Positions 7,157 through 40,571 of a stretch of DNA of 64,000 bases are shown here, in pieces. Every line of letters begins with the position of its first letter. Position 1 is the stretch's first letter. The position numbers and the translations under genes were made by a program. Location of the stretch: positions 15,661-79,660 of the forward strand of contig JAGWHY010000003.1 of the NCBI GenBank assembly GCA_028873575.1. The letters are read 5' to 3'. The stretch comes from Acidobacteriota bacterium (GTDB taxonomy: Bacteria > Actinomycetota > Acidimicrobiia > Acidimicrobiales > RAAP-2). The notes under the pieces were generated by a model that had not been told where the DNA came from, ran no database searches, and worked only from the letters and a program-made list of their open reading frames with translations.

Positions 7157-7429
7157 CTACTTCTTCTTCGCAGCCTTCTTGGCCGGAGCCTTCTTAGCCG
7201 GAGCCTTCTTAGCGGGCGCCTTCTTGACGGCCTTCTTTACTGCCTTCTTAGCTGCCTTCTTGGCCGGAGCCTTCTTCGCAACCTTCTTCGCAGCAGCCTT
7301 CTTGGCGGGCGCCTTCTTGACGGCCTTCTTTACTGCCTTCTTAGCTGCCTTCTTGGCCGGAGCCTTCTTCGCAACCTTCTTCGCAGCAGCCTTCTTGGCA
7401 GGCGCCTTCTTCTTCGCGGCAGTAGCCAC
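7157..7429 (-). CDS. Lys/Ala-rich histone-H1-tail-like (AKKA/PAKKA repeat) putative nucleoid-associated protein
   Basis: The listed ORF is 7157..7456. A GTG at 7429 is preceded by a perfect AAGGAGGG RBS (7433-7440) and is the preferred start. The product is about 90 aa and almost entirely A/K/P/V repeats (KKAPAKKAAAKKVAKK...). No globular domain is visible. Confidence 0.6.
   Translation of the reverse strand: MATAAKKKAPAKKAAAKKVAKKAPAKKAAKKAVKKAVKKAPAKKAAAKKVAKKAPAKKAAKKAVKKAVKKAPAKKAPAKKAPAKKAAKKK
7212..7397. repeat. Perfect 93-bp (31-codon) tandem duplication inside the Lys/Ala-rich gene
   Basis: Unit gcgggcgccttcttgacggccttctttactgcc...cagcagccttcttg occurs at 7212-7304 and again, identical as far as I can read it, at 7305-7397. 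A diverged partial third copy follows (gcaggcgccttctt). Confidence 0.85.
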
Positions 7430-7732
7430 TTTCCCTCCTTGGGACTCATCGTTCAATCAAACGGGAACCACGAAAACACCACCTTGGTGCAGTCGATGCA
7501 GGAACCACTTTGATGACGCGAACTCGCTCATGCCTCGCCCAACCTCGCGGTTGTGCGCCGACTGATCGCAGTGCACGGTCCACCGCGGAGAAGCGTCGCG
7601 AGCAACGATGCGCACAGCGTCGCTCACTACGTGGACCTCCTCCGCAGAAGGACAGAACAAAGTTCAGTCGTAATTGAGACCAATGTCAAGTATTTCGACG
7701 ACTTTTACGACCGATGGTTGACGATGAAAAAT

Positions 7733-9016
7733 TTTGGAGGCATCTACCTCGGTCGCGGTGAGCGTGGCGACGCGCGCAGTGGCGATCAACATTCGACGTT
7801 GGTCCTTGGCCCCACGCGCAGTGGCAAGACGACGAGTGTGATTATTCCCAACCTTCTCACGACCTCCAGTCCCGCCGTGATTACGTCGACGAAGGACGAC
7901 GTCGTGCGCCAATTGGCGGACGCGCGTCGCGACGGCGCGACGCTGCTGTTCGATCCTTCCGGCACGGTGCCGACCCCCAAAGGCGTGCACCGCGTTGGCT
8001 ACTCGCCAATCCGCCAGGCACGCGAGTGGGACGGCGCGGTGCTGGTCGCGCGAGGGTTGCTCGACGTTGCCCGACGACAAAGCGTCCATCGTGGCGACGA
8101 TCACTGGAGTGAACGTGCTGGTGCGTTAGTCGCGCCCTTGCTGCACGCCGCGGCGCTCAGCGACGAATCCCTCGGCCAACTCGCGACGCGCGTCGACGCG
8201 CGTCGCTACGAAGACTTCGCGCAACTCTTAGACGATCGCTACGGCGAGTTTCATCCGGCCGTTTCGCTCTTGCGCGGTGTGCTGGCCACGGAGGAGCGAG
8301 AGCGCTCGAGTATCTGGTCCAGCGCGGCGGGGCTCTTCGCCGGCGTACGGACCGAGGCGGCTCGTCACGCCGCGCGTGAGGCGCCGCTCGACGTCACGAG
8401 TTTTCTCAGTGGTCCCCACCAGTTACACGTCGTCTCACCAAGCCGACACCAAGCAGTGACGACCCCGCTCGTCGTGGGTCTCATTGAAGAACTCGTCCAC
8501 GCCACCTACGACCGATCCAGCTCCGGCGCCACGCTTCTACTCGCCCTCGACGAACTAGCGAACGTGGCTCCCCTGCCGCGGCTGGCCAGCATCGTCTCCG
8601 AAGGTGCCGGTCAGGGCGTCTTGACTCTCGCGTGCCTGCAGGACTTGAGCCAGGCCCGGGCGCGTTGGGGAGCCACGGCCGACGGTTTTCTCTCCCTCTT
8701 TCCTACGACCCTCGTCCTGCCCGGCATCGCCGACCGAGAGACGCTGCTGCAACTCCAACGTTTCGCCGGTCGCCACTTGGTCGAGACCACCACGGCCCAA
8801 CGTGACGCCAAGGGTCGCCTGCGCGGTCACGCGACCGGTCAGCTCGAACGCGACGTGTTGAGTATCGCCGAGCTCACCCAGGGGCGCCCGGGGCACGCCC
8901 TCGGACTCGACGAGCGCAACCGGGTGCGCTGGATTGAGCTCACGCCCGCCTATCGGGACGCCCGATTCCGCCGTCACCTCGAGCGACCTTCGCGCGAGTA
9001 TTCGCGCGAGCGCTGA
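7733..9016 (+). CDS. VirD4/TraG-type (type IV coupling protein-like) P-loop ATPase lacking a membrane anchor
   Basis: ORF 7553..9016, with the ATG at 7733 preferred. Motifs are HSTLVLGPTRSGKTTSVIIPNLL (Walker A in the T4CP context) and LLLALDELANVAPLP (Walker B). There is no hydrophobic stretch anywhere in the ORF, including the in-frame upstream extension. Confidence 0.65.
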   Translation, partial: FGGIYLGRGERGDARSGDQHSTLVLGPTRSGKTTSVIIPNLLTTSSPAVITSTKDDVVRQLADARRDGATLLFDPSGTVPTPKGVHRVGYSPIRQAREWDGAVLVARGLLDVARRQSVHRGDDHWSERAGALVAPLLHAAALSDESLGQLATRVDARRYEDFAQLLDDRYGEFHPAVSLLRGVLATEERERSSIWSSAAGLFAGVRTEAARHAAREAPLDVTSFLSGPHQLHVVSPSRHQAVTTPLVVGLIEELVHATYDRSSSGATLLLALDELANVAPLPRLASIVSEGAGQGVLTLACLQDLSQARARWGATADGFLSLFPTTLVLPGIADRETLLQLQRFAGRHLVETTTAQRDAKGRLRGHATGQLERDVLSIAELTQGRPGHALGLDERNRVRWIELTPAYRDARFRRHLERPSREYSRER

Positions 9017-10044
9017 ACCCACGCGGAGAGTTCGCGCATTTCCAGAGGTCGAGGGCCGCGCTCACGGACGAGCGCGCTTTGGCGGGCCTGCCACACGCCA
9101 AGCGTTTTTTCGCGCACGCCACGTTCGTCGCGCCACTCGGGGTAGAGCGCGTTCACGCACCCCTCAATCTCGCGAGGCGCTTGGCCGAGAATCGCCGCGT
9201 CACTCCACGCCTCGACGACGTGACGACGCGCGACCTCGCGACGACCCTCCAGGCTGGCGCCGAATCGGTGCTCGTCAATGGTGCGCGGCGGCGCGATGCG
9301 CGCGAGTCGCTGACCGGACTCTTCGAAACGTTCGAGATCACGACGCCACCGTTGTCGAATTTCGTCGCGTTCCCAATATCGCTTTTCGCCACGGACGTCG
9401 TGGTGACCACCCCAGAGCGCACGATAGCCCTCGTCGAGTCCGGCGATCGCGTCGTGACCCGCGAAAGTGCGCTGAGCTTGGTAGGAGGTTCGTCGAGCAA
9501 TCTCAAAGCGCAACGACGCGCGATACAACCCGTCGGCGGCGCGCGCGTGGGCGTAGAGCGCGCGCGAATCCAAGACGACTGAGGTATTGGCGGGTCGCGC
9601 GCCGACGACGACGTGATCATGCAGGTGTGGCTCGCCGTGTCGATTAACGCCGTGGGTGAAGGACACGACGCGTTCCCACGCGCGCGACACTTCGCGGTCG
9701 CCACCGGCGCTGCGGTCACGAATAACCAACGCGCGCGACTCGAGGTACGCCATTGCCCCACGAACTGACGTGCGCTGAGCGGCGACGAGGTGGGGCGCCG
9801 CCGCTTCGTCGAGGGCCAGCAGGGTCGAATACGGTCGTGGCGCGGCAAAAATCAGGTCGTACCCCATGACTTGCGAGCGCGACGTCGTCGTCAAGACGCG
9901 CGACACGTCGTGGGCGCTCGCGGGGTCGCCGTCACCGCGTAACCACCACCCCGCCGGCCCGTCACGAAGACCGTCGAGTTCGCGCGCCTGATCGTCGGTG
10001 TAGTAGCGAACGTCGCCACTGCGGCGTACGTAGATGCGCAACAT
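8974..10044 (-). CDS. TrwC/MobF-type relaxase (HUH) domain protein without a helicase domain
   Basis: ORF 8974..10050. The ATG at 10044 is preceded by GGGAG. Motifs are an N-terminal Tyr pair (VRYYTDD), GYDLIFAAPRPYSTL (compare TrwC GLDLTFSAPKS), and the His cluster SFTHGVNRHGEPHLHDHVVV (compare TrwC FRHETSRERDPQLHTHAVI). About 356 aa, so relaxase domain only. Confidence 0.7.
   Translation of the reverse strand: MLRIYVRRSGDVRYYTDDQARELDGLRDGPAGWWLRGDGDPASAHDVSRVLTTTSRSQVMGYDLIFAAPRPYSTLLALDEAAAPHLVAAQRTSVRGAMAYLESRALVIRDRSAGGDREVSRAWERVVSFTHGVNRHGEPHLHDHVVVGARPANTSVVLDSRALYAHARAADGLYRASLRFEIARRTSYQAQRTFAGHDAIAGLDEGYRALWGGHHDVRGEKRYWERDEIRQRWRRDLERFEESGQRLARIAPPRTIDEHRFGASLEGRREVARRHVVEAWSDAAILGQAPREIEGCVNALYPEWRDERGVREKTLGVWQARQSALVRERGPRPLEMRELSAWVQRSREYSREGRSR
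8990..9009. repeat. Quasi-palindrome tcgcgcga-gtat-tcgcgcga in the 43-bp overlap of the two convergent genes
   Basis: Two copies of the self-complementary octamer TCGCGCGA are separated by 4 nt. In RNA from either strand this gives an 8-bp GC-rich stem with a 4-nt loop. It encodes SREYSRE in both convergent reading frames. Confidence 0.85.
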
Positions 10045-10071
10045 GGGCACCTCCCGGCACCCAACGGTCGT

Positions 10072-12054
10072 CTACAGCGCGGCCAACATCCGCTTCGCGA
10101 GCTCGTGACCAGCTCGGCGATACGCCGGCGTCGCGACGACCGCGCCCGGACCGCACTTCACCATCAGGTGATCAAGGAACGAAGCGCTCGTGACGTGAAA
10201 CTTGACGGCGAGTCGACCGTCGCGCACGGTCGACCACTGCGCGCCCGGCAACGTTTCAAAGTGCCAGCGGTTCGGCGGTTCGAGGACCACGACCACCTCG
10301 CCCCCGTCGTCACCGACGCGGGTCAGCCAGCCCTCAACGGTGTCCGGCGGTGTGGGAACGCCCGGTGAGGTGGCGAGGACTGCCGTCACGCGATCGAGGC
10401 GAAACGTACGCCAGTCGCGTCGCGTGTCGCAGTAGGCGCGCACGTAGGTGTGACCATTCAAGACCCGGATCTCGCGCGGCGAGATGAGACGGACTTGGAC
10501 TTCGTCGGACTCGACGGCGACGTACTCAATCTTGAGCTGCGCGCCGTCGCGCACCGCGCGCTCAATCGTGACGAGCGAATCGTCGACGTCGTTGGATTCA
10601 ACGTGCAAAAAAGAACTCGTGACGTCCTCGATCTTGCGCATGGCTGAGGTGAGCGCGTCGTCGTGGTACACCCGCGCCGCCTCGTGCAGGGCCAGGTTGA
10701 GTTCGAACAGGTCGCGCCACATCAAGGCCGACGGCTCGGGCGCGCCTTCGGGCAGGTCACTAAAGTCCGCGAGGTAGAGCGAATCGTCGTGGGCCTCGTC
10801 GTCCCAGTCGTCACACTCCTTGATGACGTGAGCGGGAAATCGGCCGGTCCCGTCGGTCGTCGCGTTCATCGGCTCGAGCGAGACGAGACGGTCCATGATG
10901 AGTCGAACGTGATCGGGCTCAAGGCCAAATCGTCGCGCGAGTTCACTCACGCGAAGCCCTCCGTCACTGGCGTAGACCGCGTGCAAGAGCCGTAGGGTCT
11001 GCCCGAGCACGTCCTGCCCACCCTGGGGCGGAAAGACAATGTCGTCCAGGGGTGGCGCGTCACCGCGGTTCACGCCTCTGAGCCACGTCGCCAGGTCGTC
11101 ACGTAGAGATTTGGGAGCCTCCACGCGAACGCGGTCCGCGGCGTCGAGGGCGAAACGTAGCGCGCTGCCGGGTCCGTCAAAGGTGATGCCGACCTCAACC
11201 CGATTGCGTTTTTGCGCGGTGAGCGCCCCCGGGTACTGACGAACCAACAGTTCCGCGTAGTCGGCACTCGTACTCACGACAACGTCGAGTGGTCGAGGCG
11301 ACTTCTGATACTCCGGTCGCCACGCGCGCGCGTTCTCGAGCGTCTCGTCGTCGACCGAGAAAGTATCGGCCAAGACTTCGGGCATCGACGTCATGCGCGA
11401 AAAGCGGTATCCCTTGATTTCCTCCGTCCCGCGCACTCTCGCCACGAGGTACGCGACTCCGCGCACCACGTCCACGACGAGTGGCTCCACGACACGAATC
11501 TTTCGCGTGGACGAGTAGTACTCGAAGGACAGAACGCGGCGAAGCTTCAACGCCCGCACGACTGGTGTGTAGTAGTTGGACGCGGCCAGCGCGCCGTCAG
11601 TGGCGGGCGTTTCGCTAAAGACGCTAAAGGCCCCCGACTGACCGAAGCCGCAAAAACGCAGCGCGAGCGCGACGACGCGTGCCTCGCGATCGTTGAAGTA
11701 CAACGGCGGCGCGTACCCACTCGCGGGGTCGACGCGATAACCAACGGACCCGTCGTCGCGCTCGACGGTTTCGATGACGAAACCGAGATCTCGGATACGG
11801 GCCTTGTCACGTTCGAACTTCTGACGCACCGTCGCGTCGGCACCCTCGTAGGCGCGAACTTTTCGCGGCCCCTTCGCCGACACGGGGAACTCGTCAACGG
11901 TCAGCTCGCGAAGTATCTCTTCCTGACTCAACGCACCGTATTGGTGGGCCCGCTGTAACAACAGCACCAGCGCCACCAGGCGCTCACGGCTCTGTTCAAC
12001 ACTTCCTCGCACGACCATGGCTCTCCTCGAAGTTCTCGCGTCCGTCGCCGTCAC
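10072..12054 (-). CDS. Fused PafB-PafC-type transcriptional regulator (two HTH-WYL-WCX modules)
   Basis: 660 aa. The first module starts with LVALVLLLQRAHQYGALSQEEILREL (wHTH) and has a WYL-like core near VVRGVAYLVARVRGTEEIKGYRFSRM. The second has LRLLHAVYASDGGLRVSELARRFGL (wHTH) and GHTYVRAYCDTRRDWRTFRLDRV (WYL). An alternative start at 12018 has a GAGGAG RBS. The gene lies 15 nt after moaC and 27 nt before the relaxase start. Confidence 0.7.
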   Translation of the reverse strand: MTATDARTSRRAMVVRGSVEQSRERLVALVLLLQRAHQYGALSQEEILRELTVDEFPVSAKGPRKVRAYEGADATVRQKFERDKARIRDLGFVIETVERDDGSVGYRVDPASGYAPPLYFNDREARVVALALRFCGFGQSGAFSVFSETPATDGALAASNYYTPVVRALKLRRVLSFEYYSSTRKIRVVEPLVVDVVRGVAYLVARVRGTEEIKGYRFSRMTSMPEVLADTFSVDDETLENARAWRPEYQKSPRPLDVVVSTSADYAELLVRQYPGALTAQKRNRVEVGITFDGPGSALRFALDAADRVRVEAPKSLRDDLATWLRGVNRGDAPPLDDIVFPPQGGQDVLGQTLRLLHAVYASDGGLRVSELARRFGLEPDHVRLIMDRLVSLEPMNATTDGTGRFPAHVIKECDDWDDEAHDDSLYLADFSDLPEGAPEPSALMWRDLFELNLALHEAARVYHDDALTSAMRKIEDVTSSFLHVESNDVDDSLVTIERAVRDGAQLKIEYVAVESDEVQVRLISPREIRVLNGHTYVRAYCDTRRDWRTFRLDRVTAVLATSPGVPTPPDTVEGWLTRVGDDGGEVVVVLEPPNRWHFETLPGAQWSTVRDGRLAVKFHVTSASFLDHLMVKCGPGAVVATPAYRRAGHELAKRMLAAL

Positions 12055-15317: not shown

Positions 15318-16168
15318 ACGTCGAGAAAGCGCCGGATCGCGATCGCCGATCCGACCGAACCAATCACTACGCCCACGGCCAACACGACGGCTTCCGTGCC
15401 GACGAGGGCGCTGGCGCCTAACTGAAACTCGTTGTGCAGCGGGTACCAGGTGTGCAGCGCCAGGACGAGCAACATGGCCACCACCGAGCCAATGAGCCCC
15501 TGGATAAAGCCCTCGGTGATGTAGGGCACGCGAATAAACCAGTTCGTCGCCCCGACCAGCTTCATGACCGACACTTCGCGTCGACGCGAGAAAATCGCCA
15601 TACGAATGGTGTTCAAGATCAACACCACGGCCGAGAGCAACAGCACACTCGCCAACGCGATGAAGACGATCTGCACCACGCGGATGGCGTGGTTCATCTC
15701 GCGAATCTGCTGCTCGGGCGCGGTGACCTTGTAGACGCCAGGCTGATTCTGAAAGGTGGTCTCGACCACGAAGGCGTTGGAGGGCACCGTTGGAATACAG
15801 CGAAACGACGACGGCATCTGCGCGACGCTCAGCACACTCGACTCCGACGGTGGCAGAAGCTTGAGGGCCTCTTGGTAGTCCTGGGCCTGGGTGTAGTAGA
15901 CGCAGCTCTTCACGATGGGCAGGGTCGAAAGTTGACCCTGCACGTTGGCGATCTGGCTCGTCGTCGCGTTGGGCTGCATCCACACCGTGACGCGGGTGCC
16001 CTGTTGCCACTGGGCCGACGCTTGCGCGGCGCTCTGACGCAGCAGCAACGCTGAACCGGCTAAGGAGAGTGAGACCGCGACGGTCAAGACCGCGGCGATG
16101 GTCATCATGCGGTTTCGCCAGAGGTTGCCCAGCGTCTCTTTCACGGCGTAGCGAAGATAGACCCTCAC
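15314..16168 (-). CDS. ftsX: Cell-division ABC transporter permease FtsX
   Basis: 284 aa. N-terminal [17 protein letters not shown], a large extracytoplasmic loop, and three C-terminal TM segments. A 4-nt overlap couples it to ftsE. Confidence 0.85.
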
Positions 16169-38945: not shown

Positions 38946-40571
38946 TTAGCGCCGCGACGGCGCGGCCACCGGCGTCGCCTCGCTCAAGGCCTCGCGCGCG
39001 TGGTAACTCGAACGCGTCAGTGGCGAGGACTGCACGTGCGCGAGGCCCAGGCGGCGCCCCCGCTCGGCCAAGTCCTCGAACTCGTGGGGTTCCCAGTAAC
39101 GCGCGACGGGTAGGTGGCGCTCGGTGGGTCGTAGGTACTGCCCGATCGTGGCGATCTGCACGCCCACCGCGGCGAGGTCGGCCAGCGTCTCTTCGACCTC
39201 GTCGGCACTCTCGCCGAGTCCCACCATCAGGCCCGACTTGGTCGTAAAGCCGGCGCGGGCACTGCGCGCGAGCACGCTCAGTGAACGTAGGTACCCCGCG
39301 CTCGGACGAACGGCCCGTTGCAGGCGCGCGACAGTTTCGACGTTGTGATTTAACACGTCGGGCTGGGCCGCGAGCAAAATCTCGAGCGACGCCACGTCGC
39401 CCTTTAAGTCCGACGTCAGCACCTCCACCTTGGTGTCGGGCGACGCTTCGCGAATTGCCCGTACCGTGGCCGCCATGCCGCCGGCGCCGCCGTCGGGCAG
39501 GTCGTCGCGCGCGACGCAGGTGATCACCGCGTGGTGAAGGTTGAGGCGCACGACTGCTTCCGCGACGCGCTCGGGTTCACTTGGATCAAGGGGCATTGGC
39601 TTACGGGTGTCAATCAGACAAAAACCGCAGGCCCGCGTACAGCGCTCGCCGTTAACCATGAAGGTCGCGGTGCCCTGACTCCAGCACTCGAAGATGTTCG
39701 GACAGCCCGCCTCTTCACAGACCGTCACCAGACGCAGGTCCTCGGTCAACGTGCGCAGCGACTGGTACTCGTTACCCATGTGGGCCTCGATGCGCAGCCA
39801 CTCGGGCTTGCGCGTGCGAATCGAGAGTCCGTCGTCCGGGTTAACGCCGGCCTTACGCAGGCGACGCAACATTGGACGTTCCGCCGAGGTGGTCGCCACC
39901 GACCGGTCGACGCGCGCCACGCGCGCCTCCGTGCCGAGTCGCGCGTCGAGCTCTTCACCCAGAATCTCTTCGACGTCGGGTACGTGGAGTTCGAGCCCCA
40001 GTGAGACGAGCGAGCCGACCGGCTTGTCGGGGATGCCGCACGGAATAATCGCGGCGAAGGCCGCCAGATCGACGTCGACGTTAAGCGCGACGCCGTGCAG
40101 GGTGCGACGGCGTCCCATGTCGTCGCGCTCGGTGCGCACGCCCACCGCGGCAATTTTGACGGGTCGACTCTCGAGGTGCGCCCAGACGCCGGGGTAACCC
40201 TCGAGGCGCCCGACGTCGCCCAGACGACCGTCGGGGTCGACGCGACGCACCGTCGCGACGACGGCCTCTTCGAGTCGGTGCACGTGCGCGCGACCCGCGC
40301 CGGGATCGTCGCTCACCGTCACGATCGCCCAGGCCACGATCTGGCCCGGCCCGTGGTAGGTGACGTCGCCACCCCGGTCGGCCTCGACGACGACCGCGTT
40401 GAGATCCTCGGGGGCGACCAGGAAGTGATCGGCCTGCGCCCGTACGCCCTTCGTGTACGTCGGCGGATGCTCAAAGAGCAGCACGTAGTCGTCGCGCGCG
40501 CTCACCAGCGCGCGCTGAAAGTCGTTGGCCTCGAGAAAGCTGACGCGCCCTAAGTGGCGACGTCGCAACAT
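38946..40571 (-). CDS. lipB-lipA: In-frame fusion of octanoyltransferase LipB and lipoyl synthase LipA
   Basis: A single 541-aa ORF. The N-terminal ~230 aa carry LipB motifs (GGDVTYHGPGQIVAW, IIPCGI). The C-terminal ~310 aa carry LipA motifs (RKPEWLRI, CEEAGCPNIFECW, radical-SAM CTRACGFC). There is no stop between the two halves. Confidence 0.85.
   Translation of the reverse strand: MLRRRHLGRVSFLEANDFQRALVSARDDYVLLFEHPPTYTKGVRAQADHFLVAPEDLNAVVVEADRGGDVTYHGPGQIVAWAIVTVSDDPGAGRAHVHRLEEAVVATVRRVDPDGRLGDVGRLEGYPGVWAHLESRPVKIAAVGVRTERDDMGRRRTLHGVALNVDVDLAAFAAIIPCGIPDKPVGSLVSLGLELHVPDVEEILGEELDARLGTEARVARVDRSVATTSAERPMLRRLRKAGVNPDDGLSIRTRKPEWLRIEAHMGNEYQSLRTLTEDLRLVTVCEEAGCPNIFECWSQGTATFMVNGERCTRACGFCLIDTRKPMPLDPSEPERVAEAVVRLNLHHAVITCVARDDLPDGGAGGMAATVRAIREASPDTKVEVLTSDLKGDVASLEILLAAQPDVLNHNVETVARLQRAVRPSAGYLRSLSVLARSARAGFTTKSGLMVGLGESADEVEETLADLAAVGVQIATIGQYLRPTERHLPVARYWEPHEFEDLAERGRRLGLAHVQSSPLTRSSYHAREALSEATPVAAPSRR

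Follow-up and report, generated by a model that had tools for sequence, protein, structure and literature searches.

A relaxase, an anchor-less coupling-protein-like ATPase and a PafBC-type regulator at one chromosomal locus of the Acidimicrobiales

The three-gene locus and its products

The DNA analysed in this study, hereafter the window, is a stretch of 64,000 nucleotides (positions 15,661 to 79,660 of the forward strand of contig JAGWHY010000003.1, assembly GCA_028873575.1) deposited as an Acidobacteriota bacterium and assigned by GTDB to the order Acidimicrobiales (RAAP-2). Three adjacent genes in this window encode an ATPase of the type IV coupling protein (T4CP) family, a TrwC-type relaxase domain and a regulator with two WYL modules. 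This trio had been proposed in an earlier reading of the letters alone (the original prediction), and all three genes and their domain assignments were upheld by hidden Markov model and fold searches. The features at the locus, with the ratio of nonsynonymous to synonymous substitution rates (dN/dS) of each gene, are as follows.

7724..9016, plus strand: anchor-less T4CP-family ATPase of 430 aa, consisting of a nucleotide-binding domain (NBD), an all-alpha domain and a TraG-D_C region (Pfam; AlphaFold2 (AF2) model and Foldseek; no transmembrane (TM) segment; dN/dS 0.059)
8974..10044, minus strand: stand-alone MobF/TrwC-type HUH trans-esterase (relaxase) domain of 356 aa, helicase-less (Pfam; PDB sequence match; Foldseek; dN/dS 0.114)
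10072..12054, minus strand: fused PafB-PafC-type regulator of 660 aa with two helix-turn-helix (HTH)-WYL-WCX modules (Pfam; PDB 6sj9; dN/dS 0.065)
8974..9016, both strands: convergent 3' overlap of the ATPase and relaxase genes, 43 nt (sequence)

The ATPase was matched by the Pfam models T4SS-DNA_transf (5e-20), TraG-D_C (1.7e-15) and TrwB_AAD_bind (1.6e-6). Its start had been placed at 7733, where the codon is TTT; the ATG lies at 7724 and is also the start used in public gene calls. The Walker A motif GPTRSGKT, which begins at residue 29, and the Walker B motif LALDE were invariant across 47 homologues. An AF2 model built from these 47 homologues reached a pLDDT of 87 and a pTM of 0.84, with a helical insertion (the all-alpha domain) at about residues 95-230. 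Using Foldseek, the model was aligned over about 400 columns each with Helicobacter pylori Cag-beta, a VirD4 protein (2e-19, TM-score 0.70), and with TrwB-deltaN70 (5e-15), and the TM-scores over both references were 0.66-0.72. The absence of any hydrophobic segment, which had been claimed for the open reading frame (ORF) and its upstream extension, was confirmed: from the in-frame stop at 7516 onwards, the Kyte-Doolittle mean over 19 residues nowhere rises above 1.34. The upstream extension is hydrophilic, so that no TM segment was overlooked there because of a mis-called start. Since the model superposes on Cag-beta and TrwB-deltaN70 and no hydrophobic segment is present, the protein is read as a complete cytoplasmic T4CP that naturally has no anchor. 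Hundreds of homologues of about 432 aa with 68-93% identity were found, all from Acidimicrobiales.

The relaxase was matched by Pfam TrwC (9e-23) and, in a PDB sequence search, by TrwC (5e-5). The first 60 N-terminal residues of its AF2 model were of low confidence; the best 26 Foldseek matches of the model were all MobF/TraI/TrwC trans-esterase domains, with the trans-esterase domain of pKM101 TraI on top (8a1b, 300 columns, 6e-8). As predicted, there is no helicase: neither Pfam nor Foldseek indicated one, and the 356 aa correspond to about the whole trans-esterase domain and nothing more. The length of the homologues is constant (356-358 aa). In 23 homologues, H131, H140 and H142 of the HUH three-histidine site and Y14 were invariant, position 15 varied between Y, F and L, and no second conserved tyrosine was present about 8 residues downstream. 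These conserved catalytic residues suggest that the protein may still make and reseal nicks in single-stranded DNA (ssDNA) through a phosphotyrosyl intermediate. A single conserved tyrosine would fit nicking and resealing and not a two-tyrosine rolling-circle termination. Compared with other chromosomal relaxases of the Acidimicrobiales, the relaxases of the window clade keep the YY and H...HxH motifs, no longer have the LGLxG segment or the FSxRxA motif, and carry APR in place of APK. Both the ATPase and the relaxase matched the NCBIfam models for conjugative T4CPs and MobF relaxases below threshold only, which places them far from the curated conjugation families.

Two WYL stretches and one WCX domain were reported by Pfam for the regulator. 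Its proposed fused PafB-PafC architecture was borne out by the best PDB match, the naturally fused PafBC of Arthrobacter (6sj9, 7.8e-16, 664 versus 660 aa); the alignment covers both halves, and the WYL signature RxFRLDR is present. Pfam HTH_PafC was not reported for the protein of the window at E<=0.01. The regulators at the same position in two other loci, L146 and L121 (loci compared in this study are numbered with the prefix L), matched it at 1.6e-26 and 2.3e-26, respectively. In L146 the regulator is split into genes of 347 and 334 aa, the latter with HTH_PafC, WYL and WCX. The double HTH-WYL-WCX architecture and its length are thus shared with Mycobacterium PafB/PafC and with the fused protein of Arthrobacter aurescens (6sj9), a known architecture that occurs in both split and fused forms (PMC6789036). 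In mycobacteria, the DNA-damage response has PafBC as its master activator, which is switched on by ssDNA (PMC11804915, PMC6789036), and PafBC orthologues were defined by their neighbourhood in the pafA/proteasome locus (PMC6789036). In contrast, the regulator described here lies outside a pafA/Pup-proteasome locus, adjoins a relaxase gene, is convergent with a T4CP-like ATPase and is only about 25-30% identical to known PafBC proteins.

The spacings on the minus strand were as predicted. The relaxase gene follows the WYL gene after 27 nt, with GGGAGG as ribosome-binding site before the relaxase ATG, and 15 nt lie between moaC and the long WYL ORF (51 nt to the start at 12018 used in public gene calls). 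Judged from the 27-nt spacer, the relaxase and WYL genes are probably co-transcribed. The 43-nt overlap of the convergent genes contains TCGCGCGA-GTAT-TCGCGCGA, and SREYSRE is encoded on both strands, so both proteins end alike; in L003 the overlap is likewise 43-46 nt. The hairpin of this overlap was considered as a conserved terminator or a nic hairpin and was rejected, as its stability across 79 loci was barely above that of shuffled sequence.

Chromosomal setting, deeper lineages and origin

To find related loci, one genome per species (185,579 species) was scanned with a relaxase-family profile. The scan matched 127 loci, all labelled as metagenome-assembled genomes (MAGs) of Acidimicrobiales type apart from a few obvious mis-binnings, and 80 of them were fetched for synteny analysis. 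The gene order oppDF-rnhB-cofC-[hlp]-ATPase-relaxase-WYL-moaC-Zn-ribbon...dxs was kept in all 80 wherever the contig was long enough. Amino-acid identity to the window ran to 68-74% in the ATPase, about 63% in the WYL protein and about 57% in the relaxase; the ATPase exceeded the neighbouring rnhB (about 51%) and cofC (about 54%). Calculated against the closest relative (L004), dN/dS was 0.059 for the ATPase, 0.065 for the WYL gene and 0.114 for the relaxase, and 0.127 and 0.155 for the neighbouring cofC and rnhB.

No feature of a mobile element was found around these genes. In the eight contexts annotated with Pfam, no integrase, Rep, FtsK/TraB or type IV secretion system (T4SS) gene was present within +/-10 kb, and the 64-kb window holds no T4SS gene. 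The window also contains no tRNA and no compositional break, and every other gene tested in it is a housekeeping gene, all of which agrees with the original prediction. We looked for relatives embedded in an integrative and conjugative element (ICE) or an actinomycete ICE (AICE) and found none: all 80 species share the housekeeping synteny and the eight annotated contexts are free of the genes named above. An early survey described the Acidimicrobidae as devoid of AICEs (PMC3218068). Domestication, proposed earlier in place of a conjugative role, is strongly supported by the purifying selection and the order-wide vertical inheritance, and we conclude with high confidence that the three genes form a domesticated core module and not a mobile element. 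One part of the earlier claim was not retained. A moaC-WYL-relaxase transcript had been proposed, and the spacings agree with it; the adjacency to moaC is clade-specific and is broken in L003 and in the deeper lineages, so moaC is not part of the module.

Some records at this locus carry unexpected labels. L024, L061, L081 and the protein P0121 are labelled Candidatus Saccharibacteria or Acidobacteria/Acidobacteriota and probably come from mis-binned or mislabelled MAG contigs. The MAG palsa_511 has two contigs (L028 and L029), each with a relaxase locus 57-58% identical to that of the window, which reflects either a mixture of strains in the bin or a real duplication.

More distant relatives were obtained by an exhaustive search over 1.84 billion representative proteins, in which the next-closest ATPase relatives were 38-49% identical and also mostly anchor-less. 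In the profile search, the ATPase relatives were labelled Acidimicrobiales wherever the source names an organism. Together with several long contigs, 80 further metagenome loci were typed using tblastn. In these deeper lineages (ATPase 40-49% identical), the ATPase gene almost always follows gpsA-cofC-(histone-like)-HU, and its downstream partner depends on the lineage. Four arrangements were distinguished.

The commonest arrangement, type a (about 40 loci), has a convergent helicase-less TrwC relaxase of 440-500 aa and PafB/PafC-type genes, with the regulator either fused (about 650-740 aa) or split in two genes. In type b (L087 and L088), a full-length TrwC+AAA_30 relaxase-helicase of 1058 aa is present and there is no WYL gene; the AAA_30 helicase is confined to this lineage. 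In type c (about 17 loci, including L085, L089, L090, L092, L093, L095-L098, L100-L103, L107, L169 and L170), the ATPase gene heads a co-directional imuA'-imuB-dnaE2 cassette with gaps of 55-130 nt. The NCBIfam scores support this assignment (142 bits for ImuA' against a cut-off of 65, and 1233 for the error-prone polymerase DnaE2 against 939). An orthologous ATPase thus precedes the actinobacterial ImuA'-ImuB-DnaE2 cassette in a sister clade, whereas the ATPase of the window has no adjacent mutasome genes. The cassette as described in mycobacteria contains no T4CP-like gene (PMC10421592), and an array headed by such an ATPase gene is not known from earlier descriptions of the mutasome. In type d (L131, 7983-11745, and L126), the order is guaA-ATPase-UvrD/PcrA, and the ATPase gene has been relocated beside guaA. 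In the imuA'-type sublineage (L089-L096 and L118), the perfect palindrome TTCGCG-N-CGCGAA precedes the ATPase-imuA'-imuB-dnaE2 array, 64-133 nt before the start codon of the ATPase. It occurs ten times in 771 kb, nine of them here, and it is unlike the usual actinobacterial LexA box. It is probably an operator.

In a neighbour-joining tree, the chromosomal ATPases formed one clade, separated by a long branch from the nearest plasmid T4CP. Relaxase-type loci were spread over two or more deep clades, and those of the imuA' type grouped in a single nested clade. From this placement, the pairing of relaxase and ATPase is ancestral in the order, and the mutasome and UvrD arrangements are derived; the association with PafBC is probably ancestral as well. 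The nearest non-chromosomal relatives of the ATPase, about 34% identical, are the T4CPs of small Mycobacterium and Rhodococcus plasmids, among which that of a M. kansasii plasmid has 608 aa and an N-terminal extension of about 180 aa with hydrophobic stretches. For the relaxase, identity to MobF proteins of Mycobacterium and Rhodococcus plasmids is 30-35% within the first 200 residues. The module is best read as an exaptation of a relaxase and coupling protein of MOBF type, such as are found on actinobacterial plasmids.

The module resembles two known kinds of transfer systems. With the TrwC-TrwB pair of R388 and the MobF plasmids of actinobacteria, it shares the trans-esterase fold with three HUH histidines and an N-terminal tyrosine, the T4CP fold of NBD and all-alpha domain, and the adjacency of the relaxase and T4CP genes. 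It differs from them in that no transmembrane anchor, helicase, T4SS or plasmid/ICE backbone is present, and in that the two genes keep one chromosomal position throughout an order and evolve under purifying selection. Like those integrative and mobilizable elements (IMEs) and mobilizable plasmids that bring no more than a relaxase and a T4CP of their own (CloDF13 with MobC/MobB is an example), it combines a minimal relaxase with a T4CP without mating-pair formation (MPF). However, elements of that type carry an integrase or replicon with att or oriT, are patchily spread and depend for transfer on the transmembrane domain (TMD) of their T4CP (PMC7431656), and none of this applies here.

Possible functions of the module

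We consider the module to be an ancient, vertically inherited part of the Acidimicrobiales chromosome, whose constant part would be a soluble T4CP ATPase of hexameric type without the former membrane anchor. A TrwC-type HUH trans-esterase would be the ancestral partner of this ATPase, deprived of the helicase in most lineages and probably co-expressed with a PafB/PafC-type activator of the ssDNA-sensing class, which is fused in this genome. In the mechanism that we propose, PafBC would sense ssDNA and control or accompany expression; the relaxase would nick or reseal ssDNA at specific sites or structures through a 5'-phosphotyrosyl intermediate; and the ATPase would translocate or remodel DNA, or the relaxase-DNA adduct, inside the cell and not through a secretion channel. 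Co-transcription, the sensing of ssDNA by PafBC and the cooperation of relaxase and ATPase are what we infer from the genes and their arrangement. Exaptation into a chromosomal function linked to DNA damage is the best explanation overall, and we give it about an even chance. A function in the DNA-damage response itself we hold to be slightly less probable than that. More tentatively, the pair may have become a dedicated component of the actinobacterial DNA-damage response; the relaxase and the soluble hexameric motor might, for instance, produce ssDNA or act on it where lesions occur or forks stall, activate PafBC in this way and feed the mutasome or UvrD.

Several results speak for this proposal. 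The invariant Walker A and B motifs, Y14 and histidine triad together with the complete folds indicate that the enzymes look active. The PafBC family of the regulator is one pointer to DNA damage, and the DNA-damage reading gains independent support from the sister lineages, in which the ATPase gene heads the damage-inducible imuA'-imuB-dnaE2 cassette or lies beside UvrD/PcrA. Docking on a channel is argued against by the loss of the anchor, since TrwB, PcfC and MobB without their TMD are transfer-dead (PMC7431656), and also by the fact that most lineages have no helicase any more and that no MPF gene lies nearby.

A number of observations weigh against the proposal. No pafA, pup or proteasome gene was found in the window or beside the WYL genes of the relatives examined. 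A conserved LexA box (GAAC-N3-5-GTTC) or RecA-NDp motif was found neither upstream of the ATPase gene nor elsewhere in the window: scanning for the RecA-NDp pattern TGTCR..-N8-TAnnnT gave one off-target match in the window and no match ahead of the ATPase gene in any of 158 loci. No conserved nic site or oriT candidate was found, and the sole long conserved non-coding stretch resembles an RNA leader on the minus strand. The relaxase of this clade is derived and several MobF motifs are gone from it, so it may now act on a different substrate. Rearrangements at a recombination-prone locus, and not function, could have created the neighbourhoods with imuA' and UvrD. Finally, the search for T4SS genes covered the window and the neighbourhoods of the loci, and such genes may lie elsewhere in these genomes.

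Other explanations were weighed against the proposed DNA-damage-linked function. The strongest of them is a chromosome-borne initiator of transfer, in which the relaxase would nick a chromosomal oriT and the soluble T4CP would hand the DNA to a channel encoded elsewhere (a T4SS, a type VII secretion system (T7SS/ESX) or another one, through an adaptor). PafBC would then couple Hfr-like transfer or DNA export to DNA damage, similar to the SOS-induced transfer of ICEs. Relaxase and T4CP genes that lie side by side canonically serve this task (PMC12857230); both the catalytic residues and TraG-D_C, the region for relaxosome recognition, are kept, one lineage retains a full-length relaxase-helicase, and the closest non-chromosomal relatives are the T4CPs and MobF relaxases of Mycobacterium and Rhodococcus plasmids. 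But the ATPase has no TMD, and engineered T4CPs in this state do not support transfer (PMC7431656); no MPF/T4SS gene was found in about 170 loci or in the eight annotated contexts, nor any oriT-like conserved element; the helicase for processive unwinding is lost in most lineages; and one clade has the ATPase at the head of the mutasome operon with no relaxase next to it. We regard a role in transfer as unlikely.

Somewhat less probable still is that the neighbours are functionally separate, with the double-WYL protein acting as the general PafBC regulator of DNA damage in the lineage and the domesticated relaxase-ATPase pair serving a purpose apart from DNA damage, such as replication termination, dimer processing or nucleoid maintenance beside HU. 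Mycobacterial PafBC regulates more than 100 distant genes and not its neighbours (PMC6789036, PMC8682763), which would fit such a separation, as would the lack of a PafBC-type promoter motif near the ATPase gene and the position of the latter next to HU/hlp. Against this, the adjacency of the relaxase and PafB/PafC genes with short spacers has been kept in at least two deep clades although the identity of the WYL proteins drops to 25-31%, and the mutasome and UvrD neighbourhoods point to DNA damage independently.

A defence against plasmids or phages, in which a WYL-regulated decoy relaxase and the T4CP would intercept or nick incoming ssDNA, is improbable. WYL regulators often adjoin defence systems (PMC9122601, PMC11662680), those of the BrxR/CapW type being controllers of defence islands, and PADLOC gave a weak match of the ATPase to mad8 (E 1e-4). 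However, PADLOC returned no significant model for the relaxase or for a system, its other matches being to generic WYL models, and no neighbouring defence genes were present in the genomes examined. The regulator is of the PafB/PafC heterodimer type and not of the BrxR/CapW homodimer type. Defence systems are typically patchy, occupy variable islands and evolve fast, whereas every genome examined has the module at a single housekeeping locus, and its dN/dS is 0.06-0.11. A functionless remnant of a decaying ICE or IME, which the relaxase and T4CP content would recall through its likeness to an IME mobilisation module, can be dismissed almost entirely, because all three genes are under strong purifying selection, their lengths are constant and their catalytic motifs intact, the position is identical in 80/80 species and conserved across the order, and no integrase, att repeat, tRNA or compositional anomaly accompanies them.

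MOB typing and ICE/IME finders rely on the view that relaxases and coupling proteins mark mobile DNA, and Acidimicrobiales are abundant in soil, peat and water metagenomes. The present locus shows that a relaxase and its T4CP can be passed on vertically as a core chromosomal module of a whole bacterial order, and such hits in Acidimicrobiales are therefore not evidence of mobilisable elements. What is new is the order-wide exaptation of such a pair with an unexpected link to PafBC and the mutasome. A search of the full-text literature returned no paper joining PafBC and relaxase, among the papers listed none linking PafBC to T4CP terms, and no publication describing the module; for a review on the recruitment of mobile elements for cellular functions, no occurrence of the word "relaxase" was listed (PMC8987985). 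The module is a clean case of exaptation of conjugation machinery beyond the T4SS channel itself. If the pair has indeed become a dedicated component of the DNA-damage response, it would be the first repair or signalling machine derived from a relaxosome, and in the ATPase a naturally cytoplasmic T4CP would for the first time serve something other than secretion. The module ties a PafBC regulator and, in sister lineages, the ImuA'-ImuB-DnaE2 mutasome to an unsuspected ATPase, a candidate new player in the actinobacterial DNA-damage response, and it provides biochemists with a T4CP that is soluble by nature and a trans-esterase of minimal size.

The hlp gene, the conserved spacer and minor observations

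To the left of the ATPase gene, two further features were recognised.

7157..7456, minus strand: hlp, gene of a Lys/Ala-rich histone-H1-like protein with AKKA repeats, left synteny anchor of the ATPase (translation; weak NCBIfam match)
7457..7723, minus strand: conserved non-coding spacer between hlp and the ATPase gene, likely with the hlp promoter and a structured 5' leader (alignment; RNAalifold)

The hlp product consists of AKKA-type repeats only, with an internal tandem duplication of about 30 aa and no HU fold, and its NCBIfam match, to a histone H1-like family, was weak. In the deeper lineages, the same position is occupied by an HU with a basic tail and a separate H1-like protein, and an HU/p173 neighbour was found in most loci.

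The spacer of about 260 nt is far more conserved than the flanking proteins. The alignment of 7457-7723 had a mean column identity of 72% with long invariant runs. RNAalifold gave -44.6 kcal/mol for the minus strand versus -16.7 for the plus strand, with 11 pairs supported by two-sided compensatory changes. The minus strand carries a TTGACA box, and GGAGGAGG is sequestered in a helix, paired with CUUCUCC. No Rfam match was obtained. A small ORF was considered because of a 'TVHCDQS..' stretch and was rejected, as the frame is broken in many genomes; an oriT or a known RNA was rejected too, given the lack of an Rfam match and the covarying structure on the minus strand. Since this structure lies on the minus strand, the spacer is better read as the hlp leader, and the folding model suggests that it is probably an undescribed structured 5' leader (with the promoter) of the hlp mRNA. 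The promoter of the ATPase gene must also lie in 7457-7723. A candidate damage-promoter motif in it, GAACAAAGTTC at -69 of the ATPase gene, was discarded, as L004 does not share it despite being 92% identical; TGTCAAG is explained as the complement of the TTGACA box of the minus strand.

Two minor observations were made in the window. Inside the ATPase gene, a perfect palindrome of 24 nt, GCGACGCGCGTCGACGCGCGTCGC, lies at 8183-8206. It is the longest in the 64 kb (the runner-up has arms of 9 nt), and it was rejected as a functional site because no orthologue keeps it, including the 92%-identical one. At 38946-40571 on the minus strand, a single ORF of 541 aa joins the catalytic domain of a LipB-type octanoyl/lipoyl transferase to a lipoyl synthase (LIAS_N and radical SAM) and, judged from its domains, appears to be a lipB-lipA fusion.

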